Shown here one piece after another: positions 9,160 to 33,123 of a DNA stretch of 64,000 nucleotides. The notes under the pieces are model-generated. The model made no database searches. It had not been told where the DNA came from and saw only the letters and a program-made list of their open reading frames with translations. The DNA is taken from positions 922 to 64,921 of the forward strand of contig JAZKZP010000093.1 of NCBI GenBank assembly GCA_045612715.1, given 5' to 3'. Within the stretch, counting starts at the first letter, position 1; each line of letters starts with the position of its first letter. This DNA is from Eubacteriales bacterium. Lineage in GTDB: Bacteria > Bacillota > Clostridia > Oscillospirales > CAG-272. The position numbers and the translations under genes were made by a program.

Positions 9160-9162
9160 TCA

Positions 9163-11076: not shown

Positions 11077-11077
11077 A

Positions 11078-16436: not shown

Positions 16437-16706
16437 TATATGGGTAGAGTCGATAAAATGGGTGTCATATCCGTGATGATAAGGAAATCCATAGGTTAAA
16501 TTAAGTGTGGTTTTAGTGATTTTTATTGATGTGAAGCTTAAGTTATTAAAGCTTGTGTAATAATGGAATGTATAGGGGTCGAGTTACCATCTATCTTCTC
16601 GGAAAGTTGAGCAACGCTTTTAGCCTTGATTTACTTGACCGAAGCAATCTCGGTTGGAGACGAATCCGCCTTTTCCGAGACGTTAGTGGAGAGTTTGATG
16701 GAGACC

Positions 16707-16742
16707 ACAAAAAAGCCCCCTTCTGTTCGTCTGCAGAAGGGG
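16707..16742 (-). terminator. Terminator of serine recombinase 1
   Basis: Stem ccccttctg/cagaagggg followed by TTTTTT on the minus strand, 7 nt after the stop codon. Confidence 0.6.
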
Positions 16743-16748
16743 AGCGCT

Positions 16749-18233: not shown

Positions 18234-18299
18234 TGTTAAATCCTCACTTTCTGTAGTATGATCCCTGCAGTTGAGAAAACTGCAGGGACATTATTCTTA

Positions 18300-18446
18300 T
18301 TACTGTTTCTTGTAAATCTGCACAATGCCAATTAAAGCATCATTCTTCTTACCTTTAATAATAGAACCTGAGGTGCTTTTCGTAGCATCTTTAAATGCAA
18401 GCTTATCACTAAGCTTCTGTCTTGAAACACTTATACTTATTTTCAT
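18300..18446 (-). CDS. Possible 48-aa small protein below the ORF-track cutoff
   Basis: Hand translation gives MKISISVSRQKLSDKLAFKDATKSTSGSIIKGKKNDALIGIVQIYKKQ*. It starts 8 nt after the upstream gene stop and fills an otherwise empty 220-nt gap. Confidence 0.3.
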   Translation of the reverse strand: MKISISVSRQKLSDKLAFKDATKSTSGSIIKGKKNDALIGIVQIYKKQ

Positions 18447-18453
18447 ATTTTTA

Positions 18454-18882
18454 CTATACCTTTTTAGAAGTCATATCTATCAACGCAACCTTTTGACCTT
18501 TAATCATATCAAAGCCGATGTTATTAAAGCTCAACGATGTCACATTTGAATAATCAAGTGCAAAAGTTTCAGTAATCATCTTAACTACTCCTGCGGCATA
18601 GCATATTTTTTTGCCGTCTTGACCAGATGTTGGGCAAGACGCAGATTTTGAACTTATGCTTTTGCTGGAAACGATAAGTGTGTTCTCTGAGGGTACAGGT
18701 AAGAAGTACACTTCGTCTGTTACATTTAAGTCAGCACTTAATGTCTTGCTGAGAGTAATGCGCTTGCCGTTAATATTATTTACGATTGACAAGGAATGCT
18801 TGCCACCGCCAGAAGCTACATTATAATTTTTACCATTTTCTTCAATCATGTTAAGCAACTCTGTCAAATTTAATTTTGTCAT
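18454..18882 (-). CDS. Hypothetical protein (142 aa)
   Basis: The ORF lies in an operon position downstream of the helicase gene. No motif recognised. Confidence 0.5.
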   Translation of the reverse strand: MTKLNLTELLNMIEENGKNYNVASGGGKHSLSIVNNINGKRITLSKTLSADLNVTDEVYFLPVPSENTLIVSSKSISSKSASCPTSGQDGKKICYAAGVVKMITETFALDYSNVTSLSFNNIGFDMIKGQKVALIDMTSKKV

Positions 18883-18910
18883 TATTTTTTACCTCTTTTT
18901 CTTTATTTTA

Positions 18911-21112
18911 TTATGTTTCTTCTTCCTCATCATCGTAGAGAAGAAGGTTAATGTTGCTACGTTTTGGTAAATCTTTTACTGATTTTACAACATAGTCAAC
19001 AGGGGGATTGTCTTCTGGTGAAATGCACAGGACATTCTCATTTAAGGTAATACCTGCCGTGAGATTTCCGTTACGTTCTTCAAATTCAATAGCAGTCGAT
19101 ACAAGCTTATAACCTTTAGGAAGGTTAAGCTCTAGTAAGGATAGGATATTGAATACATCTTGACCGCAAACAACGCTGTCTTTTCCGCTTTCCGTAAAGT
19201 AAAGAGTCAAACTATTCTGTGCCATCTTCTTCTTAGAAAGTAGTAGAGCTTGTTGTTCAGGAAGAGGAATTGCATATAACGTGCAATTTCTACCTATTGA
19301 CATCCTCGCCTTGAAGGAGCTGTTCAGCGTTATAGCAAACGAGTTCATTTCTGCCCTCGTTATGGTAAGGCTTGGTATCTCCTTCAAAGCATTTAAGTGT
19401 CTATATTCTGTTACGTTGCATTCGTTTGCAATATAAGCATTGAGATTTTGCAAGCTCATATTCAAGTCGGATACTTCGCTAATTTTCTTTATTATACTAT
19501 CGGCTTTTGGAAGAATTATGCAACAGTACTTTGCAGGTATTCCTCCAAAAGTTTGGTCGGTATAGTAGTACCGACTATAAAATTTTACAGTATATTCTTT
19601 GGATTCCAATGCTTGCATCGTTTTGGTGGGATTTTTCATTTCTTGAGGTAATATCTTATTTTTAAGGATATCCTCTTGGATCCACACACAGGCTTTGCAT
19701 TTATAGAATCCTGTTGCGCCCCAGAAGGAGCTGTAATGTTTTGCTCTGCCTTTAGCTTTCGGCGATAGGCTCTCGACAGTCGGGAACATATTGCGATTAC
19801 TAGCTACAAAGCCAACTATTTTGTCAAGCAGCTTATCAGCATAATCTCTGTCATCACGAGCGGCGATTGTAGCCTTGATGTGACGAATGAGATACTTTTG
19901 CACCGCTTTTAAGTTGAAGTTGCATTTGATAGCTTTTCTTAAGATGTAGCCTGATGTTACAATTATTGCGCCTCGCTGTATTAAACGTCTTGTTGTAGGC
20001 GCGATTTCACCTTTAAAATCAAGTAACATTTTTTTATAGCATTTTTGATAATATGAGAAAAGCTTTTCATTTTCTTTGTCGTCAAGCAAAAGCTTCACGA
20101 GGGGCTCGGTTGCCCATCCGTAGTTGTTAAAGGTTACTTGACGTATCTCTTCAGTTAACCAAGGTTCCTTATCAAAGCACGAAAGTGAAAACTCCATGAT
20201 TCTTGCACTCTCGCCACCAAAGTTAAGAGTCCTGTCTAAAATTGATACTTCACTCGTCATTATAATAGAACCGCTGAATTCAACCAAAGGTCTAAGCTTA
20301 CCTTTATTATTCAAGCGACGTTTCTCTTTGCCTGTAGGTAGCGTGTATAGTAACTCCGTCCAATCAAGGTTTGGAGTGTACGTGGCTTCATCGCAGAGAA
20401 ATGGATAAGAATTCCTTTCTTGCAACATAGCGTATAATGCTCCTGAAGTGGCATTGAAACCATCTATAAAGTATCTCGGAGATCCATAACAACTGCTTAT
20501 TAAGAAAAGTGAAGTTGTTTTTCCGCGAGAAGTTTTATTGACTAGGGCATATAAATTTAACTCTGTGAATACACCTGCTTCCTTTAATATATATGTTACA
20601 GGTGCAGTAGCACCCAACATCAGTATCAAAGCACGTTCGGGATTGTTTACGAAATGCTTACGAATAAAATCGCGCCACACTTCAAAACTGCCTTTGGGTT
20701 CTAATACCCTTTGCCATTCCTTGTTAACAGAAGAGAGCTGCTTCTGCGTTAAGTCGCCTATGGGGTTATAAGCGCAGAAGCACTTCTTGCCGCCGATTTC
20801 TGTAAACCCTACCTTATTATGATAGTATACAATAGGAGCTTTTTTTTCGGCATCGTCAAGCTCTTCTCTTAAAACTTCATATGCCTTATCATCTTCGATA
20901 ATTGATAGTCCGTGGAGTGTTAATTTGTCAAAGAACTTTCTTTTGGTGAATTCGTCCCTTGGTACAGTAAAAGGAATGCTGTTGTGGGGAGTGGAGACTT
21001 GAATCGTCAAGCTTTCCTCACCTGTGAACAGATTAATGGACTTTTCGAGAACCTTAATTTCTTCCTCTGTGCCTTGAGACGAATCCACATTTACGATATC
21101 TTGAGAATTCAT
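18911..21112 (-). CDS. DUF927-type (Cch/MCM-like, SF3-related) putative replicative helicase
   Basis: 733 aa with a Walker A-like motif (LVNKTSRGKTTSL) and Walker B (PFLCDEATY) in the centre, the layout I associate with DUF927/Cch helicases of SCC elements. Confidence 0.65.
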   Translation of the reverse strand: MNSQDIVNVDSSQGTEEEIKVLEKSINLFTGEESLTIQVSTPHNSIPFTVPRDEFTKRKFFDKLTLHGLSIIEDDKAYEVLREELDDAEKKAPIVYYHNKVGFTEIGGKKCFCAYNPIGDLTQKQLSSVNKEWQRVLEPKGSFEVWRDFIRKHFVNNPERALILMLGATAPVTYILKEAGVFTELNLYALVNKTSRGKTTSLFLISSCYGSPRYFIDGFNATSGALYAMLQERNSYPFLCDEATYTPNLDWTELLYTLPTGKEKRRLNNKGKLRPLVEFSGSIIMTSEVSILDRTLNFGGESARIMEFSLSCFDKEPWLTEEIRQVTFNNYGWATEPLVKLLLDDKENEKLFSYYQKCYKKMLLDFKGEIAPTTRRLIQRGAIIVTSGYILRKAIKCNFNLKAVQKYLIRHIKATIAARDDRDYADKLLDKIVGFVASNRNMFPTVESLSPKAKGRAKHYSSFWGATGFYKCKACVWIQEDILKNKILPQEMKNPTKTMQALESKEYTVKFYSRYYYTDQTFGGIPAKYCCIILPKADSIIKKISEVSDLNMSLQNLNAYIANECNVTEYRHLNALKEIPSLTITRAEMNSFAITLNSSFKARMSIGRNCTLYAIPLPEQQALLLSKKKMAQNSLTLYFTESGKDSVVCGQDVFNILSLLELNLPKGYKLVSTAIEFEERNGNLTAGITLNENVLCISPEDNPPVDYVVKSVKDLPKRSNINLLLYDDEEEET

Positions 21113-21462
21113 CTTATGAATTCACGCTTAACGATATTAAGATACGTGTTGCCGTTATAAGCTTCGACATCATCGAATGTAAGCATTTCTGTATGACCAA
21201 CGAAGTCAATTGGATCCTCGATGCCGTTTGCTTCAAGATAGTCGAAAAAATCCACAGTACGCTTGTTTCTATTACTGTTCATAAAAATTTCACGATACTG
21301 ATGAATTTTGCCATCGCAAGTAATGTTGTAGGAAATTTCAATAGCTTCCTTTTCGCCATACTTATCAGCCCATGCAACATTAGTTACCACTGAATTGTAA
21401 GTTCCAGGAATAATCTGATGCTTAGCCTTTTTATGGGCTAATCTTTTCTGAATATTGATCAT
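21109..21462 (-). CDS. Hypothetical protein (117 aa), translationally coupled to the helicase
   Basis: Its stop overlaps the helicase start (ATGA at 21109-21112). The AAGGAGG Shine-Dalgarno is strong. Its position parallels the small ssDNA-binding partner upstream of cch in SCC elements, which is inference only. Confidence 0.55.
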   Translation of the reverse strand: MINIQKRLAHKKAKHQIIPGTYNSVVTNVAWADKYGEKEAIEISYNITCDGKIHQYREIFMNSNRNKRTVDFFDYLEANGIEDPIDFVGHTEMLTFDDVEAYNGNTYLNIVKREFIR

Positions 21463-21524
21463 GTCAATACCTCCTTATTAGTATAATTTTTTTGATATAT
21501 TTGCTCTTTCTGGAGCTTGCTTTT

Positions 21525-21553
21525 ATTGTATCATAAATTTCCAAAAAATTCAA
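21525..21553 (-). promoter_or_regulatory. Sigma-A-type promoter of the helicase operon
   Basis: On the minus strand: TTGAAT, 17-nt spacer, TACAAT. Confidence 0.4.
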
Positions 21554-21708
21554 TAAGATATTGAAAAAAGATTAAAAAGAGCAAAAAAAGCAGTTATTTA
21601 CCACAATTAATCAAAAAAACCACCAAAACGCGCACTTTTGTGGGAAATGACTCAAAAGTGCTCATCTTGATTATTTTGATATTTTTTATGATTTTGACCA
21701 TTTTTAAC

Positions 21709-21770
21709 CCCCTAGGATTTCCTATGGCAGAAGACGTGCCTTACCCGTGATGGCTAGGATCGACTGGCAC
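21709..21770. repeat. Internal copy of the island-end repeat motif
   Basis: ctaggatttcctatggcagaag...gctaggatcgactgg resembles the 94-bp units at 32367-32660 (ctaggatttcctag...atcgactct). Confidence 0.45.
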
Positions 21771-21959
21771 CCTTAAAAATGCTAAAATTATTGTTTTTTT
21801 GATGTGATTGGATTGTCAGGGAACAATTACGATGTGATATGTATTGCTTATTAACACCAAACGAAAAGAAAAAAAACAGAAATACTAAACTTTGTATTTT
21901 TGCATTTTTGCATTTTTTATACATATAACTTGCAAAAAAAAGACGAGCTAACCGCAAGG

Positions 21960-23549
21960 TCAGCTCGTCTTTCTCCTTTCATAAATTTCTTGCCTACGAA
22001 CCTCATAAGCAATATCAAGCGCTGGGAATATATCAAGTCCTGTTTTTAAGCTGATTTTAACATTGTATGTACCCACATCTATGCGATCAATGAAGTTTTG
22101 AATAAATTCCTTGTACTCAGGGGAAGCAGGGGAGTCTTTCACGGCTCGGTATTCTCCCAAAATCATCGGGATGTCGATTTTGGGAACGATGTTGCAGATT
22201 TTCTCTGCAGTTGCGCCGTTGCAGAGTTCCTTTTTGCGTTGCTCCAACTCCTTGAGTCTTGCCACAAGGATGTCCGACAGGAGCCCTGCCTCTATGGCTT
22301 CTGCAATGTTCCTTTTGGCGGCTTCTATTTCTTTCAGCTCCATTTGGCGCTGGTTCTCTGTGGGAATTTCTGTTGTCTGCGCGTGCTTCTCGATTTTCCG
22401 TTGGAGCTTTTTGAGGGAGCTTGTGTTGAGGATTTCTTTTTCGAGCAAATCTATAACATAACTCTCAAGGTAATTACGATTAATTTCCTTATTGCAACAA
22501 CAGTATTTGCGGCTAGGACATTTATAGGTAACGTGTAATAGTTTGGAACGTCCCGAAAAACGAGAGTTACCATTCATAGCCTTGCCACATTCCTTGCAGA
22601 AAACTTTCCCCGACAAAAGATAGCTCTGTTTAGCATTCTCTCTGCCACCAGTATGCCTATGCTCAGTAATGCGCTCTTGAACATTTGCGTAGAGCTCTTT
22701 TGACACTATCTGGGGACAACCGCCTTCAATGAAGATGATATCTTCCTCGTCTTTGTACAGATGGTTATTGCGTTTGCCCTCACTTGTTTTAGCTGAACAT
22801 CTGTTATAGCAATACAATCCTTGATATTTGGGGTTGGAGAGTATTCCGTATAAGCTATTCTTTTGAAAATCATTTCCTATCTTTGTTTTATAGTTGAGCT
22901 CGTGCAATCGGTCAAGGATGGCAGAATAGCCATATCCGTTGCCATACATCTCAAAAATAAGCTTTACTGCTTCAGCTTCTTCCTCATTAATTACAAGCTT
23001 ACGAGTTTCGGGGTCTATATCATACCCAAGAGGAGCAATACCGCCTGTGTGTTTGCATTGTAATGCATTCTCCTTAAGACCTTTTATGGTCTCCCTTGCG
23101 AGGTTTTGAGAGTAGTATTCAGCCATTCCTTCTAGTACTGCTTCCATCATTATGCTTTCGGGAGAATCGTCAAGGTTTTCGAGAACACTATAGACCGTTA
23201 CACCATTTTTCTTAAGTTCGCGTTTATATACTGCGGAGTCATACCTATTACGAGCAAATCTGTCAAGCTTATGAACCAAGACAATATTGAAAGCACGAGA
23301 AGCACTATCATTAATCATCTTTTGGAAGGAAGGGCGGCGGTCGGTGGTAGCACTTTTTGCTTCATCAATATAAGTGTCAACAATTATGAAGTTATGCTGT
23401 TGGCAATATAATTTCATTGCCCTCAGCTGTGCATCGATGCTTTCTGTTCTTTGGTTATCGCTGCTGAATCTTGCATATAGTGCTACTTTGTTGTTCGTGC
23501 GGATCATAGGAACTTGTTCCTTTCTTTTCTTTTTTGTATGCTCCCACAA
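21960..23549 (-). CDS. Large serine recombinase 2
   Basis: VALYARFSSDNQ catalytic Ser motif, VLVHKLDRFARN, a recombinase domain, a zinc ribbon (CKECGKAM...YKCPSRKYCCC) and a coiled coil. The terminator hairpin overlaps the stop codon. Confidence 0.9.
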   Translation of the reverse strand: MWEHTKKKRKEQVPMIRTNNKVALYARFSSDNQRTESIDAQLRAMKLYCQQHNFIIVDTYIDEAKSATTDRRPSFQKMINDSASRAFNIVLVHKLDRFARNRYDSAVYKRELKKNGVTVYSVLENLDDSPESIMMEAVLEGMAEYYSQNLARETIKGLKENALQCKHTGGIAPLGYDIDPETRKLVINEEEAEAVKLIFEMYGNGYGYSAILDRLHELNYKTKIGNDFQKNSLYGILSNPKYQGLYCYNRCSAKTSEGKRNNHLYKDEEDIIFIEGGCPQIVSKELYANVQERITEHRHTGGRENAKQSYLLSGKVFCKECGKAMNGNSRFSGRSKLLHVTYKCPSRKYCCCNKEINRNYLESYVIDLLEKEILNTSSLKKLQRKIEKHAQTTEIPTENQRQMELKEIEAAKRNIAEAIEAGLLSDILVARLKELEQRKKELCNGATAEKICNIVPKIDIPMILGEYRAVKDSPASPEYKEFIQNFIDRIDVGTYNVKISLKTGLDIFPALDIAYEVRRQEIYERRKTS

Positions 23550-23572
23550 ACGTTTGTGGGAGCTTGTTGTGA

Positions 23573-24106
23573 TTATGCATCAAGTTCGGGTGTGTATGGT
23601 TCAAGAATCCATCCTTGACGGCAACTTGGTGTGAGTGGGTGTATACCTGCCTTTTCTCCGTCACTTATTACTCTAAACTTTTCTTTGTGGTCTTCGAGCA
23701 AATCTATTACTTGATTAGCTCTATTGCTAATACGAACATTAAGCTCAGCGCCGCGACCATAAGCAAGTATAATTGTATCGGATTCTTGGGCGGCTTTAAG
23801 AATAAACTGATCGTTCTCATAACAATTTAGTTGCATATCTGATGACCACCTCATTTGTAGCTTGGCGCTTATTTTAGTAAATAAATTAACGCATATAAAA
23901 CCACCCCAGCGCTCTTGACGAGCAACGTTGCTTTGTATTAATGATACCGTAGTATCTAAAACAATATTGTCTGCTAATGCAGGCGATATAGTTATTACTG
24001 TACATAATGGAAGGTCTTTGTTCCATACTTTTTTGAAATATAATCTGTGTTCTTTGTCATCGGAAAAGATGCTTTCACATTTTACTGTGTCTTTTTCTGT
24101 AATCAT
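23573..24106 (-). CDS. DUF1643-domain protein
   Basis: DKEHRLYFKKVWNKDLPLCTVITISPALAD...ICVNLF...ILAYGRG fits the DUF1643 pattern. The family is also conserved next to ccr recombinases in SCC elements. Confidence 0.65.
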   Translation of the reverse strand: MITEKDTVKCESIFSDDKEHRLYFKKVWNKDLPLCTVITISPALADNIVLDTTVSLIQSNVARQERWGGFICVNLFTKISAKLQMRWSSDMQLNCYENDQFILKAAQESDTIILAYGRGAELNVRISNRANQVIDLLEDHKEKFRVISDGEKAGIHPLTPSCRQGWILEPYTPELDA

Positions 24107-24459
24107 ATTTTTTCTCCTTGAATATCTATAAGTATTTCTTCGGGAATATCATCCCCATATAAAACAAGAGTAATTACGGTTTCGTTATCTATAAGGTAAT
24201 GGATAACGCAAAGTGAAGCAATTACTTCGAGGTACTCAAAACGTCTACAAGAGATGTCTAAGTAATTTTTTATCTCTTTAGCTTTAGTGTTTTTCGGGCA
24301 GTATAGTATGTAACCACCAACATTGTCTATAAGCTTTTCTTCATCTTGAGATTGTACCATAGCTTCTGTATAGTAAGTTAAAACCGCTTTGGCTTCATCA
24401 TCAATGTCTTTAATGTTTTCAAGGTCATTGAGGTTATTAATCTTATATACCATCCTCAT
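24103..24459 (-). CDS. Hypothetical protein (118 aa)
   Basis: The start is trimmed to ATG at 24459 (MRMVYKINN), which has an AAGGCAGGTG Shine-Dalgarno. The longer ORF would overlap the DUF3846 gene by 140 nt. Its stop overlaps the next start (ATGA). Confidence 0.5.
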   Translation of the reverse strand: MRMVYKINNLNDLENIKDIDDEAKAVLTYYTEAMVQSQDEEKLIDNVGGYILYCPKNTKAKEIKNYLDISCRRFEYLEVIASLCVIHYLIDNETVITLVLYGDDIPEEILIDIQGEKI

Positions 24460-24838
24460 CACCTGCCTTGAAGATGCGGAAAAATATTGTGTTTTCAATG
24501 CTTTCTTTACTAATTTTGTCGGGATTATAGAACATTGAAGTATAGTGTTCCTGTTGCTCAGGGGTAAGAGAGATAAGTTCACCAGTTTTTGGATTGGTTC
24601 TGACTATATAAAATGTACCGCAAATAATATCCTGATGTGAATGTAATCTGCGATTGGGAGGGAGTCCGACGATTTTTGCTTCCTCGTTACATAAAATTTC
24701 TACATTATCACCGAGCCAAACAAACTCAATCAATCCACCTACCGCCTTTTGCAAAGAATCGAGATCGGTGTTTAGGTCTACCACACAGGGATGCTTGTTT
24801 GGTTCAATCATTAATGCTTTGATTGTCTTTTCTTTCAT
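24443..24838 (-). CDS. DUF3846-domain protein
   Basis: IKALMIEPNKHPCVVDLNTDLDSLQKAVGGLIEFVWLGDNVEILCNEEAKIVGLPPNRRL...ICGTFYIV matches the DUF3846 consensus common in conjugative and integrative elements. Confidence 0.65.
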   Translation of the reverse strand: MKEKTIKALMIEPNKHPCVVDLNTDLDSLQKAVGGLIEFVWLGDNVEILCNEEAKIVGLPPNRRLHSHQDIICGTFYIVRTNPKTGELISLTPEQQEHYTSMFYNPDKISKESIENTIFFRIFKAGDEDGI

Positions 24839-24863
24839 AATAAAAACTCCTTAAATAAAAAAT

Positions 24864-24893
24864 ATCGGTAATAGCGCTGTGGCTATTACCGAT
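24864..24893. repeat. Left copy of the 30-bp hairpin-forming inverted repeat (also a minus-strand terminator)
   Basis: atcggtaatagcgctgtggctattaccgat. Its reverse complement matches 26695-26724 at 29/30 positions. Confidence 0.8.
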
Positions 24894-24995
24894 TACTTTT
24901 AATATATATATCCATATTTTGGTGAATTTCGGATAATGTTCTTAATATAATATTTGAAAAGATAAATTTTTTGTTTCGACATTTAAATTTATTAT

Positions 24996-25024
24996 TTGAC
25001 AAGATAGGAGTTTTATGATATAAT
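24996..25024 (+). promoter_or_regulatory. Sigma-A-type promoter of the TM-protein/HTH cassette
   Basis: TTGACA, 17-nt spacer, TATAAT, 30 nt upstream of the ATG at 25054. Confidence 0.5.
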
Positions 25025-25053
25025 AGTTCCAAGATATTCTATGAGAGGTACAT

Positions 25054-26475
25054 ATGCCAGAACTATTATATAAATTGCTTAATATGTGGAAAAAGAATAT
25101 TTCTTTTTTGCTGGTTTTTTTCTTGTTTCTTATTAGTGAAATACCGTACATTACATCCATACAAGAGACTTGTGGTACACCGTGGTATAAATGTATAAAT
25201 TATTTTTATGTGTTTTTATGGTCATTGCCGACACTTGTAATATTGGTATATATTATCTTTATGAGAAACTATATGCCTAAAGCTAAGAAAAATACCAAAG
25301 GTATTGTTTTTTACATCATTAATGCTAATGAAAAACAGTATGAAGCTATTACTAAAAAATTCATAGCACAGTTTGAAAAGGCTGTTCTTAGAGAGACACC
25401 TGAATATAGTGTAGTTGTTATTGATGATTATCATTCTAAAAAGTATTATTCTATATTGTGTGATACCCAAACTAACGATGATGGTCAAACTCAGGCGAAA
25501 ATATTACAAAAACGAAGAGGTTGTATTGCTATATTAATAGATTGTATAAACGGGGGAGACGGTGAAGATTTATTTTGTCATATGACTACGAGAGTAGGTG
25601 TTACTCATCAGACCCTTTCACCTGAGATACGAGACTATTTAGTACGAGATATATCAATCGCTTTTTATCCATTAAGAAATGTTGATATTATGAAATTAAG
25701 CGAAACATCAGATCTTTCTAATTATTCTATATCTATGGATGTGATATGTAAATATATTTTGGCAAGTACATGTTTTCACTGTGGAGACTTCCAAGAAGCA
25801 ATAAATCTGTTGGAAATAATTAGTAATAGTATATCCGCAAAAAAAGATTTGCCAGATGCAATCATTCCAATAAAGAATGTCCTTAGTGAAAGATTAGCAG
25901 TATGCTATAAAGTTAAAGCTCAATTTGAATACAATATGTACTGTATGGATCATAACGAAAATCATTTAGTAAAAGTTCGTGAGGCAATTAATAACAAGCA
26001 TTGTAAAGCAGTATATGGTAGTGATAACAAAATACTTGAAGGTATTTGCTGTTTTGTCTTGGAAAAGGATGTCAAGTATGCATTAAAATGTATGGATTCG
26101 TATAATAAAAAGAATGCTGTTATTAAGTACAATAAAATTTTCCTATTGCTGTATAGTGATTGTACCGCCAATATTATCGGAAAGGCATATAATATATACA
26201 AGTCTTTTGAAACACTTTCGACTCCTGTTCAGGATCAAATTGAAGCTTTTACATATCACGAATATCAAAAAGATAATAGTAAAAAGCAACTACTATTAAT
26301 TTTGTTTTTTATATACGATTACCAAAATAATATGCCTCTAGCTAAGCGCTGCTTAGACCAGTTTAGCGAAGCTTTTCCTTGGATAAAAGAAAGTGGAGTT
26401 TCTACAATATTTGAGGGGTTTAATGAAAAATATGCCAATATAAACTCTGAAGAAGGAGAAGGGGATAGTATATGA
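25054..26475 (+). CDS. Membrane-anchored protein with an alpha/beta domain and a helical-repeat C-terminus, function unknown
   Basis: 473 aa with two N-terminal TM helices, then a region of alternating beta and alpha elements (GIVFYIINANEKQYEAI...VVVIDDYH...CIAILIDC), then about 250 aa of helical TPR-like sequence and an acidic tail. Confidence 0.6.
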   Translation: MPELLYKLLNMWKKNISFLLVFFLFLISEIPYITSIQETCGTPWYKCINYFYVFLWSLPTLVILVYIIFMRNYMPKAKKNTKGIVFYIINANEKQYEAITKKFIAQFEKAVLRETPEYSVVVIDDYHSKKYYSILCDTQTNDDGQTQAKILQKRRGCIAILIDCINGGDGEDLFCHMTTRVGVTHQTLSPEIRDYLVRDISIAFYPLRNVDIMKLSETSDLSNYSISMDVICKYILASTCFHCGDFQEAINLLEIISNSISAKKDLPDAIIPIKNVLSERLAVCYKVKAQFEYNMYCMDHNENHLVKVREAINNKHCKAVYGSDNKILEGICCFVLEKDVKYALKCMDSYNKKNAVIKYNKIFLLLYSDCTANIIGKAYNIYKSFETLSTPVQDQIEAFTYHEYQKDNSKKQLLLILFFIYDYQNNMPLAKRCLDQFSEAFPWIKESGVSTIFEGFNEKYANINSEEGEGDSI

Positions 26476-26675
26476 GAATTACATATAAAAAGCTGTGGAA
26501 AAGATTGATTGATTTGGAAATGTCCAAAACTGATTTAAGAGAAAAAACGGGTATATCTACAGTTACTCTCGCCAAACTAGGAAAAGATCAAATAGTTAGC
26601 ATGGAAGTACTTATGAAAATATGTAAGGTACTATCTTGCAATATAGATGAGATTTGTGATTTTGTAGAGGATTAG
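26472..26675 (+). CDS. Mini helix-turn-helix regulator (YozG/HTH_26-like, 67 aa)
   Basis: MSKTDLREKTGISTVTLAKLGKDQIVSMEVLMKICKVLSCNIDEICDFV fits the short XRE-like family. Its start overlaps the upstream stop (ATGA). Confidence 0.75.
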   Translation: MRITYKKLWKRLIDLEMSKTDLREKTGISTVTLAKLGKDQIVSMEVLMKICKVLSCNIDEICDFVED

Positions 26676-26693
26676 TTTATATGAAACAAAAAT

Positions 26694-26725
26694 AATCGGT
26701 AATAGCCACAGTGCTATTACCGATT
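26694..26725. repeat. Right copy of the 30-bp hairpin inverted repeat (also a plus-strand terminator)
   Basis: aatcggtaatagccacagtgctattaccgatt followed by a T-run. Confidence 0.8.
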
Positions 26726-26795
26726 ATTTTTATAACGTATAAGTGTGAATTTTAATTTTTTGTTGTTCAAAAAGCAAGCTGAAAAGACATTCATA

Positions 26796-26996
26796 TTATT
26801 CGTTGACATCATTCGCACAGCTATACTTATTGATTGCGACTTCAAAATCGTCTCTCAGTACATACATTCTTCCACCGATGGTTGTGACAGTTGTGTTCTT
26901 TTTTAGAAATTCACGTATTTTTTTGACACTTAAGGGCAGGTACTCTTTTTGTATTTCCTTGACCGATAAGTATCTACGTTCTATTTTTGTTGCCAT
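26796..26996 (-). CDS. Excisionase-family (HTH_17-like) DNA-binding protein
   Basis: YLSVKEIQKEYLPLSVKKIREFLKKN..TIGGRMYVLRDDFEVAI resembles the Xis/MerR-type HTH pattern. Confidence 0.55.
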   Translation of the reverse strand: MATKIERRYLSVKEIQKEYLPLSVKKIREFLKKNTTVTTIGGRMYVLRDDFEVAINKYSCANDVNE

Positions 26997-27105
26997 ATGC
27001 GTACTCCTTTATTGTTTTTAATTATTTGTTGTCTTTTTGATTTAAGAGCCAAGAAAGGAGAAACAAAAAAGACAGAGAATCCTGTCTTTGATGATATTAT
27101 TGTAG

Positions 27106-27348
27106 TTATTTTATTTCTTGCTCCAGATTATCAAACAAATTAGATTGAAAAAACTCTAATACAGATATATTCAAGCCGTCGCAAATCTTTTTAATAGTTG
27201 AGATAGTTACACTATGATTTCTGCCGCTAACAATATTGTTTAATGTGGATTGCGTTATTCCGCTCATAGTGGCGAGTTTATTTATAGTAATTTTGCGCTC
27301 ATTACACAATTCTTCTATCCTTTTTTTAGTTGCTTCCCCAATTGTCAA
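27106..27348 (-). CDS. XRE-family transcriptional regulator (80 aa)
   Basis: ITINKLATMSGITQSTLNNIVSGRNHSVTISTIKKICDGLNISVLEFF is a classic Cro/CI HTH. The gene is divergent from the radical-SAM operon. Confidence 0.8.
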   Translation of the reverse strand: MTIGEATKKRIEELCNERKITINKLATMSGITQSTLNNIVSGRNHSVTISTIKKICDGLNISVLEFFQSNLFDNLEQEIK

Positions 27349-27429
27349 CTATCTCACCACCTTTCATATGAATATCACAATACAAATATATTGTACCTTT
27401 TTTTGATCCAAAAGTTTAACTCAAAAGAG

Positions 27430-27458
27430 TTGACTTTTGCTCATCTATATGATATACT
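27430..27458 (+). promoter_or_regulatory. Sigma-A-type promoter of the radical-SAM/GmrSD operon
   Basis: TTGACT (27430-27435), 17-nt spacer, TATACT (27453-27458), in the 151-bp divergent intergenic region. Confidence 0.45.
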
Positions 27459-27499
27459 TTATAAAAAACAAATTTTTATATTTAGTAGTGGAGAAGTAT

Positions 27500-28669
27500 A
27501 TGAAAATTGGTATAATTGACGCTGATATTTTGGGAAGAAATAAGCATAGATTTCCTAATTTGGCATGCGAAAAAATATCTGGATATTGGAAAGATAGGGG
27601 TGCGGAAGTGCACTTGCTTCAAGATTACAATTGGGATGATTCTTATGATCATATATTTATCTCCAAAGTGTTCACAGATACACCTGTTCCAGAATGGTTG
27701 CAGGAGACAGAAAAAGTGCATATAGGTGGTACAGGTTTTTATTTTGATAAGGCTCCTAATCTACCAGATGAGATAGAACATCATATGCCTGATTATCATC
27801 TTTATGATGAATGGATTGAAAATGAAGTTGCTAAAGCAAGAGTAGCTAGAGGAGAATCCTTTAATGAAAGGTACTTTAGGTCTCAATTTAAGGAATATAC
27901 AGATTACAGTATAGGATTTTTGACCAGAGGATGTTTTAGGAAATGTAAATTCTGTGTCAATCAGAAATATAGTCATGTATTCAAACATAGTCCTTTGGAA
28001 GAATTTTATGATGAAACAAGACCTAAGATATGCTTTCTTGACGATAATTTTTTGGGATGTCCTAAGTGGAAAGAAATGCTTCAAGAAGCTATAGATACTG
28101 GTAAGCCTTTTAAATTCAAACAAGGATTAGATGAAAGAATTTTAACTAATGAAAAATGTGAAATGCTTTTTTCTGCTAAATATGATGGCGATTATACATT
28201 TGCGTTTGACAATGTATCGGATTATGATTTGATACACGAACAGTTAAAACGAATTCGCAAATATACTCGTTCAACGAGTGTTAAATTTTATGTTCTTGTT
28301 GGATTTGAAAGTACAGACGAAAAAGATATCGAAAATGCGTTTAAGCGGTTGGAATTATTGATGCAATATAAATGTTTGCCATATATAATGCGATATCAAA
28401 ACAAGAATTATTCACCGTGGAAAGAATCTGAATACCGAGGAATGTATGTAGCTCTTGCAAGATGGGGAAATCAACCTAATATTTTTAAAAAAATGAGTTT
28501 TAGACAGTTTTGTGAAGCAAATCAAGCTTTACATAAAACACAAAACACATTATGTTCGTCTATGTCAGCTATGATTAACTTTGAATCAAAGTATCCGCAT
28601 ATTGCAAGTAAATATTTTGATTTGAGATATGACGATTTTGATGTGCAAGGAGACAAATCAAATGGATGA
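27500..28669 (+). CDS. Radical SAM enzyme with an N-terminal B12-binding-domain-like Rossmann module
   Basis: CxxxCxxC cluster in GFLTRGCFRKCKFCVNQ. The N-domain is MKIGIIDADI...PNLACEKISGYWKDRGAEVHLL. ATG at 27500 with a GGAGAAG Shine-Dalgarno is preferred over 27437. Confidence 0.75.
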   Translation: MKIGIIDADILGRNKHRFPNLACEKISGYWKDRGAEVHLLQDYNWDDSYDHIFISKVFTDTPVPEWLQETEKVHIGGTGFYFDKAPNLPDEIEHHMPDYHLYDEWIENEVAKARVARGESFNERYFRSQFKEYTDYSIGFLTRGCFRKCKFCVNQKYSHVFKHSPLEEFYDETRPKICFLDDNFLGCPKWKEMLQEAIDTGKPFKFKQGLDERILTNEKCEMLFSAKYDGDYTFAFDNVSDYDLIHEQLKRIRKYTRSTSVKFYVLVGFESTDEKDIENAFKRLELLMQYKCLPYIMRYQNKNYSPWKESEYRGMYVALARWGNQPNIFKKMSFRQFCEANQALHKTQNTLCSSMSAMINFESKYPHIASKYFDLRYDDFDVQGDKSNG

Positions 28670-29345
28670 TATTATTAAAAAGCAAATAGAAGATTTCTTT
28701 ATGTATCGTGAGGATAAGAGACTCCAGACAATGATGATTGCGGGATATAGTTGTGATCTTCAACTAGAAACCACGCAATACATTCAAAATATCGTGAGTA
28801 TACCTGTAGAAGCTATTGTTGAGTACATTGTTTCATTGAAAAGAGAGCCCATTAATGCTGCAGATGTATTTCAGTTTAGTGATTTTGATGATGCTACTAC
28901 CAACCTTTGTTCAATGATTAAATGCGATTCGAATAGAGGATTGAACTACTTGGATACTGGTAAGTTATTGTTAGGTGATAAAATTCAGCGTAAAGATGGT
29001 GCATATAGAAAATATGGAGAAAATCATATAAAGATGGCTTCGTCCATAGGATTAGCGTTTAAAATCAATGACGTTTTTTATCTGTCTCCTTTAGGTTGTG
29101 CATATGATGAATTAGATGTAAAAACAACTGACAAATTACTACTTAGATTGTTATTAAGAAATAAACTTATTAGTCAATTATTATCCGAAGCTTCTAAGAA
29201 ATCTTTTGATATGGAAGCATTCTTATATGATCTTTCAAAAAGTACTTATATTAGACGCAAAACAAATATCAAGTACGTAATTTCAATTATCAATAAATCC
29301 ACAGAATATGATTTTTTACCAATTACTCAAAACATTATATATTAA
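28662..29345 (+). CDS. Hypothetical protein (227 aa), translationally coupled to the radical SAM gene
   Basis: The ATG at 28662 lies 8 nt before the upstream TGA (28667-28669). I recognise no motif. Confidence 0.55.
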   Translation: MDDIIKKQIEDFFMYREDKRLQTMMIAGYSCDLQLETTQYIQNIVSIPVEAIVEYIVSLKREPINAADVFQFSDFDDATTNLCSMIKCDSNRGLNYLDTGKLLLGDKIQRKDGAYRKYGENHIKMASSIGLAFKINDVFYLSPLGCAYDELDVKTTDKLLLRLLLRNKLISQLLSEASKKSFDMEAFLYDLSKSTYIRRKTNIKYVISIINKSTEYDFLPITQNIIY

Positions 29346-29360
29346 AAAGAGAGGGAAGTT

Positions 29361-31391
29361 ATGGCTTTTGGAATATCTGAAAATACAACAAGTTACTTTA
29401 TTAATAACAAGATAGACCTTCCTCGTTTTCAGAGAAAGGCTACTTGGAAAGACGATGACAACTTCAAATTGTGCATAAGCGTTTTTAAAGGCTATCCTAT
29501 AGGAGTGGTTATTGTAAATGAAACGGGTACAAAAAAATTTTTGCTTGATGGGCGTCAAAGACGTAATGCATTAATCAAGATGTATGATGATCCTGTCGAG
29601 GTATATAAATGGGCTACTAAGTTCATTGGTATTAAAGGTAATATGCTTGAAGAAGAAGTTAAAGATCGCTTCTCCGAAAAAATAAGCGAATATTTGCAAT
29701 CAGAATTTAATAAATCAACCGAAGAAATTAGCGAAAGCGAAGAAAATGATGTTGATGTCGATGATGAAGCTGGTAAGAGTTTCGATGCTGAATTGCAAAG
29801 TGAAAATATGCACGCTTTGTTGGATTTGATCTTGTTGGTACATGGACGCTATAGTCAAACTAATAAGTTTGCAGGTATCTTTAAATTTAATAAGATTATT
29901 CCTATAGACGATTTGGAATATTCAATGTACTCTTCTGCTAATGGAGAGCATATTATTAATCATACTAAGCTTAAAAAATTTATTAAGAGTCGTATTGATA
30001 ATGATGAGATTGAAAAAGATCAATTTTTTGCATATTTAACTAAGCGTCATAGATTAAGTGCTCAGGATTCGCAAAAACTTGATAACTATTTAACTTCACA
30101 TTGGGATTATTTTGAAAAATGCTTTGAAACAATAAGAAAAACTGATGAAATCATAATTAATGCACGTATTGGATTGATAAGATTGATAGATGCCTCACCT
30201 TTAGATGCTCAAAACATCTTTTCTTTAGTAAATGGAGGTGGAGCTCCTCTAACTGCTGAAGAGTTGTTATCTGCTAGACCTTTTTGGAATATGGAAATAC
30301 AGAGCCCTACAGATGAAGTTCGTTCATCAGCGGAAGATTTATATAAGTTTTTGCAAATAAGTGTCCCTTCAAATGTAGTAAGATGGGATGTGTGTGCTAC
30401 GTTGCTTTCGAGAATTGATAAGTCTAATTTGGTGTTTTCTAAGATTGACTTAATGGATCCCAAGACCACTCAATCTCTATTTACTAAAAAGCTTACACTT
30501 GGATTTAAATTGCTTAGTGCTGTATACGTGGGCGGCATTAATAGCAATTCCGTAAAAGATTTGGAAAATGATAAGAAGTCTAAAATTGATTGGAATAAAG
30601 ATGTAGAAACGTTTATCAAAAAATTTAATATTGCAATGGATATGTTATATGATTGCGATTATTTCAAGTATTTGATGTCTTGGAAACAATCAATAATGTC
30701 TCTGATGGGTAACTCTGTATCATTGGAATTTGCTACATTAATATATAAAAAATGGATTGAGCTTGGAGAACCTACAAAAGGAAGTCCTATTAAATTGAAA
30801 GAATTCCAAAAATGTGCAGTTATACTATGCGATCGCTTGTTATTTGAATATAGTAGTCGTTTGTGGGCTGGATCTGCTGACTCTCGCCTTGCAAGAGATC
30901 TTATTTCAATTAATGAGAGATTCAAACCTGTATCTTTTGAGGAGTGGGAAGATATAATTGATAAGTTTGCTACTGGTCAAAATTCAAAAGTTGATAAGGG
31001 TATAATTTATCATTATTATTGTCTTAAAAAGATGCGCCCATCCTTTGATGGTGTTGGAGCAACTGCTACGTATGAAATAGACCATATTTATCCACAAGCA
31101 CGTTTTGCTAATGCTGTTACAATAGATCCTATGCTTATGGAAAGCCTAGGCAATAAAGCGGTTTTACCTAAGTTAGATAATATCAGTAAGAGTGACAAGA
31201 CACTTAAGGAATTGAGAGATAATGATTGGTTATTTAGTGAGGTTTTGCGTGTAACTGAAATTAAAGATACCGATGTTGATATGTACTCTGATATTGTCAA
31301 TATCGAGAAGTTAATAGATTACAGAATCAGCGATTATAAAAATGTATTTAAAAATGTTAGAGACTCGTTCTTAAATAGCCCTAATGTATAA
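29361..31391 (+). CDS. GmrSD-family nuclease (N-terminal DUF262, C-terminal DUF1524 His-Me finger)
   Basis: DUF262 motifs DLPRFQRKATW and LLDGRQRRNAL are present. The C-terminal motif is YEIDHIYPQARF...LGNKAVLPKLDNISKSDK. The 676-aa length is typical of GmrSD/SspE/BrxU-type enzymes. Confidence 0.85.
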   Translation: MAFGISENTTSYFINNKIDLPRFQRKATWKDDDNFKLCISVFKGYPIGVVIVNETGTKKFLLDGRQRRNALIKMYDDPVEVYKWATKFIGIKGNMLEEEVKDRFSEKISEYLQSEFNKSTEEISESEENDVDVDDEAGKSFDAELQSENMHALLDLILLVHGRYSQTNKFAGIFKFNKIIPIDDLEYSMYSSANGEHIINHTKLKKFIKSRIDNDEIEKDQFFAYLTKRHRLSAQDSQKLDNYLTSHWDYFEKCFETIRKTDEIIINARIGLIRLIDASPLDAQNIFSLVNGGGAPLTAEELLSARPFWNMEIQSPTDEVRSSAEDLYKFLQISVPSNVVRWDVCATLLSRIDKSNLVFSKIDLMDPKTTQSLFTKKLTLGFKLLSAVYVGGINSNSVKDLENDKKSKIDWNKDVETFIKKFNIAMDMLYDCDYFKYLMSWKQSIMSLMGNSVSLEFATLIYKKWIELGEPTKGSPIKLKEFQKCAVILCDRLLFEYSSRLWAGSADSRLARDLISINERFKPVSFEEWEDIIDKFATGQNSKVDKGIIYHYYCLKKMRPSFDGVGATATYEIDHIYPQARFANAVTIDPMLMESLGNKAVLPKLDNISKSDKTLKELRDNDWLFSEVLRVTEIKDTDVDMYSDIVNIEKLIDYRISDYKNVFKNVRDSFLNSPNV

Positions 31392-31398
31392 TTTATAT

Positions 31399-31434
31399 AC
31401 CCCAAGCGTTAATGCTTGGGGTATTGCTTTTTTG
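31399..31434 (+). terminator. Terminator after the GmrSD-family gene
   Basis: Stem accccaagc/gcttggggt followed by a T-rich run. It overlaps the last codons of the convergent small ORF. Confidence 0.55.
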
Positions 31435-31591
31435 CTTGTTTTAGATAATCTGTAGAGTGAGAATTTAAATATGCTACAATATCATAGAGTTTATATTTTA
31501 TTGCGGTTATTTGTATTTTATTCAAATCCAACATATCTATGTTATTTTGAAAACATAGATTTTGAATTTTTTCGAATATCTCGTTATTCAT
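31409..31591 (-). CDS. Hypothetical small protein (60 aa)
   Basis: ORF trimmed to MNNEIFEKIQ..., which is preceded by a GGGAGG Shine-Dalgarno. No motif recognised. Confidence 0.4.
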   Translation of the reverse strand: MNNEIFEKIQNLCFQNNIDMLDLNKIQITAIKYKLYDIVAYLNSHSTDYLKQAKKQYPKH

Positions 31592-31813
31592 AATGCCTCC
31601 CGATTTATTACTAGTATTAGATTTACCCAAGTTTAAAAGAAAATATGTTTGGACTATTGAAAAAACAAGACAATTATGTTACAATTAACGTGGATGTTGC
31701 CCCATTAATAGTATCATAACTGTAAACAGTATCAAATTAAACAGTTAATTGTTGACTTAAACAATATTATTCAAATTATAGTAAAAATATTTTTATTTTA
31801 AAGGAGAATAAGT

Positions 31814-32182
31814 ATGAACACAATTAATTGCTTTAATATCATTAACCGTGTGCCCGAAGGTACACATACTTACTATGACAAAAGACACCATATATTTGTA
31901 ACTCGTTCGAGTGATAATTACGAAAGTCGTAATATTATATTGGCGCCTTGTAGTTATTATATGAAAAGCCAAATATGGCAAGAGTTTTACTCTCTTCTTA
32001 CTGAAGAGCAGTATGAACTTGCTAAGTCTTATCCTTATCGTAAGGGATTCTTTGATTATCTTAAGGAAATAGGTTTGTATGAAACATATCGTCAAGCCGA
32101 AGAAAATGTGGAACTTAAAGAATTGACTGCTTGGCTCATTAAAAATGACATAGACTTAGTCTATGCTCTACAGAATAGTTGA
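31814..32182 (+). CDS. Hypothetical protein (122 aa)
   Basis: A strong AAAGGAGA Shine-Dalgarno lies 6 nt upstream. Two hairpin terminators follow at 32236-32268 and 32279-32322. Confidence 0.5.
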   Translation: MNTINCFNIINRVPEGTHTYYDKRHHIFVTRSSDNYESRNIILAPCSYYMKSQIWQEFYSLLTEEQYELAKSYPYRKGFFDYLKEIGLYETYRQAEENVELKELTAWLIKNDIDLVYALQNS

Positions 32183-32366
32183 TTTAGCAAATACGCTAAT
32201 TAACTTAATTTAATTATAATAAGGGCAATATCTAAGAACAGGCTTTACATGGAGTCTGTTCTTTTTTATTATTAAAACTAAACAAGCGGTGCCTTTGGCT
32301 ACCGCTTGTTTAGTCTCTATTATTTTGTTTTACCTTAGAGTATTTTTAATGCAAAAAAGGGCAAGG

Positions 32367-32660
32367 CTAGGATTTCCTAGCCCAAAGCGGTCATGCGATG
32401 CTTTTATCGACTCTTGATAGGGGTAGAAGATGTGAAGCAAATTTCAATAACCGTTATGTACTAGGAAATCCTCAACAAAAGGGGCATATGGCGATTTTAC
32501 CGACTCTTTATATGGGTAGAACAGTTAAATTCATTGAAAAATAGATGGAATTTAGTCTTTCCTTGACAAAACGGTCATATAGCCGTTTTGCCGACTCTTT
32601 ATATAGCAAGAAGGTTCAAATTCATCAATTTATGGTTTTCCTAGCCAAAACAAACAGAAC
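32367..32660. repeat. Three degenerate tandem units of about 94 bp at the right end of island C
   Basis: The units start at 32367, 32461 and 32558. Each contains ctaggaWWtcct...ggtcat..g..ttt..cgactctt.ata..g.tagaa. A partial fourth start (ttttcctagcc) is at 32636. Confidence 0.7.
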
Positions 32661-32698
32661 ACCGACATAGCCAGTAAAGCTTGACTAAGTCGGTGTTC
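32645..32698 (-). terminator. Rho-independent terminator of ssrA
   Basis: Stem gaacaccgac/gtcggtgttc followed on the minus strand by TGTTTGTTTT, about 30 nt downstream of the tmRNA CCA end. Confidence 0.6.
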
Positions 32699-32729
32699 TT
32701 TGTAATTTCCCTCGCTACGAGAGATTGAA

Positions 32730-33123
32730 TGGTGGACCCGAGGGGAATCGAACCCCTGTCCGAAAATCTCTTGATATGACCTTCTCCGTGGGCAGTCAGT
32801 TTTTATTATTTCCCACTATGCGTCGCCAACTGACAGGCAACACACAGTCCGTAGCACCTTTCTGCTTGATCGGTTCAGGTGCGACCACCGATGCAAGTTC
32901 ACCACTACGATGACGCTCAGTCCGCAGTCGTGGTCCTCTGCGGAGGAACGGGTGACCCGCAGGTCACAGCACTGCTAATTGAAGCGCCCGAAGGGCGCAT
33001 CAATTAAGCAGCCATTGCAACGTAATTGTTGTCGTTTAATTTTAAAATTGAGCAGTTATCGGGATTACTCAGCCCGCCACGCTTATCATACCTCAAAATC
33101 CCCGTCGAAACCATTACGAGCCC
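32730..33123 (-). ncRNA. ssrA: Transfer-messenger RNA (tmRNA, 394 nt)
   Basis: The reverse strand reads GGGCTCGTAATGGTTTCGACGGGG...GGGGTTCGATTCCCCTCGGGTCCACCA. The acceptor stem GGGCTCG/CGGGTCC has the G3:U70 pair. A T-arm and encoded CCA are present. The tag frame ends GAC AAC AAT TAC GTT GCA ATG GCT GCT TAA (..DNNYVAMAA*) at about 33004-33033. Confidence 0.92.

Follow-up and report, generated by a model that had tools for sequence, protein, structure and literature searches.

What brings a radical S-adenosylmethionine (SAM) enzyme, a small orphan protein and a GmrSD-family nuclease together in one gene cassette? The question is raised by a stretch of 64,000 nucleotides (nt) from a Eubacteriales bacterium of the Oscillospirales lineage CAG-272 (contig JAZKZP010000093.1, positions 922 to 64,921), which is called the window below. 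As a preliminary description of the window had claimed, three intact and close-packed genes of the same strand, here named g1, g2 and g3, occupy positions 27500-31391 inside an island integrated at the ssrA gene. Our analysis makes it somewhat more likely than not that this locus is one variant of a widespread, mobile and modification-based defence of anaerobes, in which g1 and g2 would mark the DNA of the host and the nuclease would restrict DNA that lacks the mark. What the data show is the structure of the genes, their conservation, the fold class, the modular synteny, the fusions, the co-variation and the phage contexts; that DNA is the substrate, what kind of mark it bears and which DNA the nuclease attacks is inferred. 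The three genes (lengths in amino acids, aa) are:

27500-28669, + strand: g1, 389 aa; ATG behind GGAGAAG
28662-29345, + strand: g2, 227 aa; AAGGAG 9 nt ahead of the ATG
29361-31391, + strand: g3, 676 aa; GmrSD-family nuclease

The stop of g1 and the start of g2 overlap in ATGGATGA (28662-28669), and the ATG of g3 lies 15 nt past the TAA of g2, preceded by GAGAGGGAAG. Both the overlap and the short gap had been described before and are borne out by the sequence, and g1 and g2 are predicted to be translationally coupled in the window. The mechanically called open reading frame (ORF) of g1 opens further upstream, at a TTG at 27437. All the motifs quoted earlier for the products, namely RGCFRKCKFC, LPRFQRKATW, DGRQRRNAL, YEIDHIYPQ and LGNKAVLP, were recovered in the translations.

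A constant core and a swappable restriction module

A scan of one genome per species gave 65 loci, 56 of them with a complete g1, and these were compared by ORF maps, clustering and annotation with hidden Markov models (HMMs). The g1-g2-g3 cassette is also present in metagenome-assembled genomes of Bacteroidales, Clostridia, Scatosoma and Ruminococcaceae, where g1 (~385 aa), g2 (227 aa) and g3 (~673 aa) recur in the same order and with the same spacing, while the flanks differ and include an ArdA/resolvase/primase element, a type I restriction-modification (RM) system or AbiEii. Such a recurrence of the gene order in many unrelated contexts means that the adjacency is not due to chance, and the earlier claim of one conserved unit is in this respect upheld. 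However, the triad as such turned out to be too narrow a definition of the unit, as the fixed part is g1-g2, to which at least five kinds of restriction module can be joined in exchange for one another, the nuclease being one of them. A restriction module accompanies g1, directly downstream, in 45 of the 56 complete-g1 loci, and the contexts are distributed over the 56 loci as follows:

25 loci: g1-g2-PbeA-PbeC-small protein (PbeA 9e-196, PbeC 1e-88); two without g2, one with a truncated PbeA
10 loci: g1-[ParB-like]-[135 aa]-[SNF2 helicase]-[ParB-like]-g2
8 loci: GmrSD-type or other DUF262/ParB-type single nuclease after g1(-g2)
1 locus: g1-DndF-DndG-DndH (DndF 1e-87, DndG 6e-45, DndH 1e-262)
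1 locus: g1-g2-AIPR/AbiU-like
11 loci: phage-like or other contexts (the phage-like bacterial loci include L048, L054, L057, L058, L061 and L063)

The hosts are all anaerobes of gut, rumen or sediment and belong to many phyla; cultured strains among them are Megasphaera sp. AM44-1BH (L035), Anaerovibrio sp. JC8 (L038), Lachnospiraceae bacterium JC7 (L010) and Dialister sp. i34-0019-2H8 (L046). Across the loci the flanks carry type I RM systems, AbiEii, a Schlafen-like helicase, WYL regulators, resolvases and ArdA, and are thus defence islands on mobile elements. Moreover, the decay of these loci is asymmetric. Six remnants of g1 have no adjoining nuclease module, and at one locus an intact g1-g2 stands beside a truncated PbeA; that the putative marking genes outlast the nuclease is what one would expect of a nuclease that endangers its host once the marking enzyme is gone. 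Blastn gave no similarity between the window and the g2-less locus L065, and an origin of the two from one contig was rejected.

g1, a divergent radical-SAM enzyme

The product of g1 has a flavodoxin/Rossmann-like domain at its N-terminus (residues ~1-110), a CX3CX2C motif (C145/C149/C152) and a partial TIM barrel, and its C-terminal region is helical. When 169 diverse homologues were aligned, the C145/C149/C152 triad proved to be 99% conserved, the other cysteines each reach 41-78%, and no second conserved set of cysteines was found; the sole cysteine of the N-terminal domain, C23, is conserved in 69%. An AlphaFold2 model built with 82 homologues has a predicted local distance difference test score (pLDDT) of 89.1 and a predicted template-modelling score of 0.82. 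Foldseek aligned this model along its full length to MiaB (7mjz, E 7.8e-7) and RimO (4jc0), and the top matches (MiaB, RimO, TM_1862, BlsE, SuiB and Mmp10) are all radical-SAM enzymes, with modest TM-scores of 0.3-0.44 and, in the case of Mmp10, a weak E of 0.047. The only library that names g1 is PHROGs, which places it in phrog_9298, 'radical SAM domain protein' (2.1e-53). No match at E <= 0.01 was obtained in Pfam, NCBIfam or PADLOC, and none among PDB sequences even with a family-profile search; the relative P0273 reaches 25.1 bits (2.3e-5) with Pfam Radical_SAM. Pfam detected no B12-binding match, the beta-alpha N-terminal domain of ~110 aa being predicted by AlphaFold2, and no TRAM domain was detected. 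Altogether, fold, motif and phrog_9298 agree with the earlier assignment of a radical-SAM enzyme behind a Rossmann-like domain, with Pfam below threshold (E = 0.11), and g1 can be regarded as a divergent member of the radical-SAM enzymes whose N-terminal domain is flavodoxin-like.

The family of g1 is large, for clustering at 90% leaves 6249 homologues and clustering at 50% leaves 2530 clusters, none of them functionally named. When the extra sequence of long homologues was searched against Pfam, nothing but one LAGLIDADG domain was detected, and the extra part proved to be g2. The LAGLIDADG_3 match (9.4e-9) lies in the 734-aa homologue P0243, where it splits two g1-matching stretches and looks like an intein or a homing-endonuclease insertion.

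g2, an orphan partner that co-varies with the restriction module

For g2 no match was found in Pfam, NCBIfam, PADLOC or the PDB. Its AlphaFold2 model is confident (pLDDT 94.6) and mostly alpha-helical, and Foldseek searches of the PDB and BFVD gave no significant relative; the matches to winged-helix/ROQ folds and to the N-terminal domain of O-methyltransferases have E > 0.2, and DNA binding was for this reason not read from the winged-helix-like ones. The homologues of g2 likewise have 227 aa. The association of g2 with g1 is close, for the two are adjacent in 45 loci, and at least 13 independent representatives of 50%-identity clusters have both on a single chain.

The two partners evolve in different ways. 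In the loci of architecture A, g1 has 69-90% identity versus 44-78% for g2, which evolves about three times faster. The nearest neighbour of g2 has the same architecture in 39 of 41 loci, that of g1 in 26 of 41, and the mean identity of g1 is 0.67 within versus 0.66 between architectures. Since g2 segregates by architecture and g1 does not, g1-g2 seems to be functionally tied to the restriction module that follows, and this co-variation is the reason why we cast g2 as a possible adaptor or specificity subunit.

Identity of g2 with PbeB was also considered. PbeB is small, mostly disordered and encoded between pbeA and pbeC (PMC10853773), while g2 is confidently folded, has 227 aa and lies upstream of PbeA, so that this identity is ruled out. 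A further observation on g2 concerns the loci L043 (3591-9134), L065 (8001-13547), L036, L041 and L050, in which g1 is joined directly to PbeA/PbeC, DndFGH or a single nuclease and no g2 was detected.

g3, a GmrSD-type nuclease

The N-terminus of g3 matches GmrSD_N (PF03235) with 3.4e-20 and 73.4 bits versus a cut-off of 33.2, and the residues P21, R22, Q24 and R25 (PRFQR) as well as D63-G64-R65-Q66-R67 (DGRQR) are invariant. A DUF262/ParB-like NTPase domain is thus followed by a putative C-terminal His-Me finger (D574-H575...N598...N607), where PF07510 gives no match and HNH_4 a weak one (E 5.5e-3, residues 569-614), with D574, H575, N598 and N607 all invariant. The only sequence relative of g3 in the PDB is BrxU (7p9k), which shares three collinear motifs at E 0.021, including the DHI...N...N region, and in PADLOC only weak N-terminal matches to HEC-05, PDC-M55C and PD-T4-2_A appear. 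Its membership of the GmrSD family, claimed before, is therefore retained on the GmrSD_N match, the invariant motifs and the relationship to BrxU, and g3 is predicted to be a GmrSD/BrxU-like DUF262 and His-Me nuclease. In the loci examined, the subclade of g3 above 55% identity was seen only beside g1-g2.

Phage copies of g1

In viruses g1 keeps different company. The survey of IMG/VR found 183 stretches that encode g1 with about 50-55% identity, and 80 loci were fetched. In 79 of these 80 there is neither g2 nor any nuclease module; a DNA methyltransferase lies within 300 bp of g1 in 44 of the 80 and within 3 kb in 63 of the 80. The typical order is a ParB-N6/N4 methyltransferase that overlaps g1 by 20 nt, g1 itself, and then a C5 or N6/N4 methyltransferase, with ThyX and an amidoligase sometimes nearby. 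The same arrangement is found in deposited genomes, for example Oscillospiraceae phage NatCom_21982, Clostridium phage phiCT453B, which is a prophage in C. tetani ATCC 453, Bacteroides phages and viruses of Methanomassiliicoccales. Conversely, a search of the bacterial defence-type loci with four methyltransferase families of the phage type found no member of any of them.

Several details of these viral loci may be added. The ParB-N6/N4 methyltransferase ends exactly 20 nt inside the start of g1 in many phages (for instance 6746-8020 and 8001-9092 in L097, 4779-6020 and 6001-7125 in L159), and the conservation of this overlap suggests that a conventional methylase and the radical-SAM enzyme are coupled in translation. 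The viral g1 is often followed by the amidoligase and by a long C5 methylase of 668 aa, which ends in an uncharacterised domain, phrog_38038. Moreover, one 'viral' contig, L073 (IMG/VR UViG_3300029243_000266, 8001-11379), carries the defence-type arrangement g1-g2-PbeA, and this means that the system is also carried by a prophage or a phage-like element.

A proposed radical-SAM mark on DNA and its alternatives

How could these observations be put together? For the function, two readings had been offered in the preliminary description, a DNA modification read by the nuclease and an antiviral nucleotide producer, and the comparative data favour the former. The core would be an enzyme of two subunits, a catalytic g1 with its single [4Fe-4S]-binding CX3CX2C motif and B12-domain-like N-terminus, and the small, fast-evolving g2. 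By SAM-derived radical chemistry g1-g2 would attach a covalent mark to the DNA of its own host, and the adjoining module, here g3 and elsewhere PbeA/PbeC, DndFGH, ParB/SNF2 or AIPR, would attack DNA without it; alternatively, the module may be licensed by sensing the self mark, as SspE is by phosphorothioate. In this scheme g2 would be the subunit, an adaptor or a specificity factor, by which the enzyme is fitted to its restriction partner, and phages that carry g1 among orphan methyltransferases would counterfeit the mark of the host. It is consistent with this scheme that Pbe and DndFGH partner DNA modification in known systems, where the modification is phosphorothioate or methylation (PMC10853773, PMC6459918).

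As for the chemistry, a class-B-like C-alkylation or methylation is our most economical guess; the domain layout of g1 agrees best with alkylation of this class. Insertion of sulfur is unlikely because no auxiliary-cluster cysteines are conserved in g1; a methylthiotransferase or a phosphorothioate-like sulfur mark is ruled out on the same ground, that is the 169 aligned homologues. Methylation of the RlmN/Cfr type is likewise unlikely, because g1 has no extra conserved cysteines. Taken one step further, g1-g2 may be the founding member of a new class of radical-SAM, possibly cobamide-dependent, DNA modifiers that write a previously unknown mark on genomic DNA, which would be read by an SspE-like GmrSD nuclease, PbeACD or DndFGH and counterfeited by gut and rumen phages with their own g1. 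This extended proposal is put forward tentatively, at somewhat less than even chances, and the candidate marks are a base or sugar that is C-alkylated at one of its unactivated carbons, or a modification of the backbone that contains no sulfur.

Several points weigh against a DNA mark written by g1-g2. Few radical-SAM enzymes are known to act on duplex DNA, spore photoproduct lyase being the example, and those GmrSD/BrxU enzymes that have been characterised cut DNA when it is modified, a polarity opposite to the one proposed here. The similarity of g1 to Pfam PF04055 amounts to 13.1 bits versus a cut-off of 29.5 (E = 0.11) and covers the cluster loop only. With a pI of 5.96, g2 is not basic, and it has no recognisable DNA-binding fold. 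Moreover, L036, L041, L043, L050 and L065 hold g1 and a nuclease module without a detectable g2, and so g2 seems to be dispensable or replaced in some lineages, which misfits a strictly obligatory two-subunit enzyme. Relatives of g3 at 40-45% identity stand alone in RM islands, without g1-g2. Finally, Pbe (CxC-ABC) and DndFGH modules are also found without a modification partner (PMC10853773), and the presence of such modules is therefore no proof that g1-g2 modifies anything.

The best of the alternatives, which we nevertheless hold to be unlikely, reverses the roles: g1-g2 would modify the DNA of phages as it enters or replicates, or a base peculiar to phages, and g3 would be a type IV nuclease that cuts what has been modified. 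The GmrSD/BrxU enzymes characterised so far cut modified DNA, BrxU is the only PDB sequence relative of g3, and the lone relatives of g3 in RM islands resemble type IV enzymes, all of which suit such an order of events. However, PbeACD and DndFGH are described as acting on DNA without the mark of the host (PMC6459918, PMC10853773), a g1 among protective methyltransferases would be of no benefit to phages, and there is no evident discrimination that would spare the host DNA from g1-g2.

Slightly less probable still is a form of the other reading offered at first, namely that g1-g2, in the manner of viperins or Ophion, turns a nucleotide or another metabolite into an inhibitor or a signal and the nuclease serves as a second layer or as an effector activated by that molecule. 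The radical-SAM enzymes known so far in defence act on small molecules, as in pVips and in OpnA of Ophion (bioRxiv 10.1101/2025.09.30.679545), and the swapping of modular effectors is typical of signal-and-effector systems. But g1 has no PADLOC match though models of pVips are included there, the partners are self-contained, ATP-driven restriction machines without a recognisable ligand-sensor domain, and the frequent g1 of phages, placed in methyltransferase clusters and coupled to a ParB-methyltransferase, is hard to square with an antiviral product.

About equally improbable is a protein or RNA substrate, in which case g1-g2 would mature the restriction module, with g2 like the recognition element of ribosomally synthesised and post-translationally modified peptides, or would modify tRNA or rRNA. 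The best fold matches of g1 are methylthiotransferases of tRNA and of a ribosomal protein, the co-variation of g2 with the module would also suit protein-protein recognition, and the winged-helix-like matches of g2 are weak. Yet the conserved auxiliary cluster of three N-terminal cysteines of the methylthiotransferases is absent from g1, one conserved g1 (~0.66 identity both within and between architectures) would have to modify partner modules that are structurally unrelated, and the g1 of phages lies beside DNA methyltransferases without a partner protein. The weakest alternative, in which g3 would be a type IV nuclease that acts on its own and g1-g2 unrelated cargo of the same mobile island, draws on the crowding of unrelated systems in defence islands and on the g3 relatives that function alone, but it is very improbable in view of an order and spacing that repeat across unrelated flanks and phyla, of stops and starts that overlap or nearly do so, of the co-variation of g2 with the nuclease type, and of the g3 subclade above 55% identity that occurs only beside g1-g2 in the examined loci.

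Relation to known systems

The closest analogue of the window, both in architecture and in the polarity proposed for the DNA mark, is SspABCD-SspE, in which, as would be the case here, a DNA-modification module is joined to a single GmrSD nuclease of the DUF262/DUF1524-His-Me type that depends on the self mark (PMC9646914). Unlike Ssp and Dnd, however, the cassette has no homologues of SspA-D or DndA-E, and g1-g3 give no PADLOC match to SspE, SspA-D or Dnd. The putative modifier is here a radical-SAM enzyme with an orphan subunit, not an ATP pyrophosphatase like 3'-phosphoadenosine 5'-phosphosulfate reductase, and g1 has no conserved auxiliary Fe-S cluster that could donate sulfur. With DndABCDE-DndFGH and DndCDEA-PbeABCD our system shares the restriction modules, which the sister loci place downstream of g1(-g2), as well as the 'mix-and-match' modularity (PMC10853773); the difference is that g1-g2 replaces the Dnd modification genes and that in the window the partner is of the GmrSD type, not Pbe or DndFGH. 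In a reappraisal of the Dnd/Pbe neighbourhoods the partners are phosphorothioate systems and cytosine methylases, with no radical-SAM enzyme (PMC10853773).

The predicted two-domain architecture and the motifs of g3 are those of the type IV enzymes GmrSD and BrxU, but type IV enzymes cut modified DNA and work without a modification partner in the host, whereas the g3 subclade is operonic with g1-g2. MiaB, RimO and the class B radical-SAM methylases have, like g1, an N-terminal flavodoxin-like domain followed by the radical-SAM barrel; g1 differs from MiaB/RimO in having no N-terminal cysteine triad of the UPF0004 type, and the sequence identity amounts to 10-13%. Viperins and Ophion (OpnABC) also place a radical-SAM enzyme in an anti-phage context, but with other partners (none, or PHP and a phosphoribosyltransferase), with nucleotides as the known or proposed substrate, and with no PADLOC-detectable relationship to g1. 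That g1 is itself an Ophion or viperin enzyme is ruled out by the different partners and the absent HMM matches.

With classical RM and the orphan methyltransferases of phages the system would share the logic of a self mark and a nuclease, and in both the (here putative) modification module outlasts the nuclease, but not vice versa, and phages carry the modification gene alone. Here, however, the putative marking enzyme is not a methyltransferase of the SN2 (bimolecular nucleophilic substitution) type, and a radical mechanism with [4Fe-4S] and SAM would imply a chemically different mark.

In PADLOC-DB v2.0.0 no family was found for g1 or g2, whether the versions of the window, of architectures B and C, or of phages were used, and no description of the pairing of g1-g2 with a nuclease was found in the literature searched, in which subscription literature was not covered. 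That the cassette matches no named system, as had been supposed, thus agrees with PADLOC 2.0, which has no model for g1 or g2, and with these searches. Altogether the system would work like Ssp, Dnd, Pbe and RM yet belongs to none of them, and its putative modification module is undescribed in the literature and PADLOC searched.

Signals, neighbours and the ssrA island

Around the three genes the window contains the following features:

16346-32741, no strand: ssrA-integrated island, ~16.4 kb, bounded by a 61-nt direct repeat; carries the cassette
27106-27348, - strand: divergent XRE/Cro-type helix-turn-helix (HTH) gene, 80 aa; HTH_26 1.2e-13, HTH_3 2.2e-11
27430-27458, + strand: promoter-like site TTGACT-17-TATACT with an extended -10 TG, 41 nt 5' of the g1 ATG; consensus match
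31397-31434, + strand: intrinsic-terminator-like hairpin and T-run, 12-bp G+C-rich stem with 6 G-C pairs, 6 nt past the g3 stop
32730-33123, - strand: transfer-messenger RNA (tmRNA), the ssrA gene

The promoter proposed earlier is present as a match to the consensus, but promoter-like matches are not enriched in the AT-rich stretch (22 observed versus 27.6 expected from shuffled sequence), and so this promoter is plausible by position only. The hairpin terminator was found as well, and terminator-like sites number 6 observed versus 1.5 expected. The divergent gene could be confirmed as one of the XRE/Cro type, but it is not conserved with the cassette elsewhere: at the other loci compared no XRE gene was found beside it. 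As a component of the system it is thus ruled out for lack of synteny, and the gene at 27106-27348 is a possible local regulator. In the five loci L007/L014, L011, L012 and L017 the system is flanked by WYL-domain regulators (328-366 aa, cluster c13), where the window has the XRE gene; their placement follows the pattern of BrxR/CapW-like regulators known beside other defence systems.

The island is delimited by 32681-32741 on one side and by 16346-16406 on the other, where these 61 nt, and with them the 3' end of ssrA, are repeated with 90% identity. Over the cassette region (24-32 kb) the G+C content is 31%, versus about 39-42% in the flanks, and the island genes include two large serine recombinases, DUF927, DUF1643 and DUF3846; the cassette is mobile.

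Further traces of mobility are seen around the island. The sequence of the ssrA 3' end (TGGTGGACCCGA...) occurs four times, at 14256-14278, 14754-14776, 16390-16412 and 32725-32747, and a 173-nt tandem duplication (14269-14441 and 14453-14625) lies beside the outermost copy. The four copies and the duplication suggest at least two or three successive integrations at ssrA, with the defence island (16.4-32.7 kb) innermost and decayed remnants at 14.2-16.4 kb. To the outer remnant part of this insertion region belongs an ORF of 435 aa on the - strand (14804-16111) without a Pfam match. Within the island, a 58-nt hairpin-containing repeat (24853-24910 and 26684-26741, 76% identity) flanks a unit of two genes on the + strand that overlap by 4 nt, 25054-26475 (473 aa, no Pfam match) and 26472-26675 (67 aa, HTH_26 2.5e-19). 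This repeat-bracketed unit (25054-26675) may be a separate second cassette, possibly another defence candidate. A repeat of ~66 nt occurs three times at 32376-32625 (62-77% identity, ~92-nt spacing), in the space that separates the island's cassette side from the tmRNA 3' end, and these repeats could be remnants of attachment (att) sites or a small repeat array.

Significance

If g1-g2 marks DNA, it would represent a new epigenetic chemistry in bacteria, archaea and viruses, and its product would be a third kind of self mark for restriction, beside SN2 methylation and phosphorothioation. The observations also concern the way in which PbeABCD and DndFGH tell self from non-self, as both appear to accept marks that differ in their chemistry. 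Even with a substrate other than DNA, a strongly conserved radical-SAM enzyme is found hard-wired to five kinds of restriction machinery. The family of g1 is large and extends over many anaerobic phyla of the gut and rumen microbiomes and over their phages, and a hidden mark, if true, could affect the interpretation of sequencing signals, the barriers to transformation in anaerobes that are hard to engineer, and the host range of gut phages.

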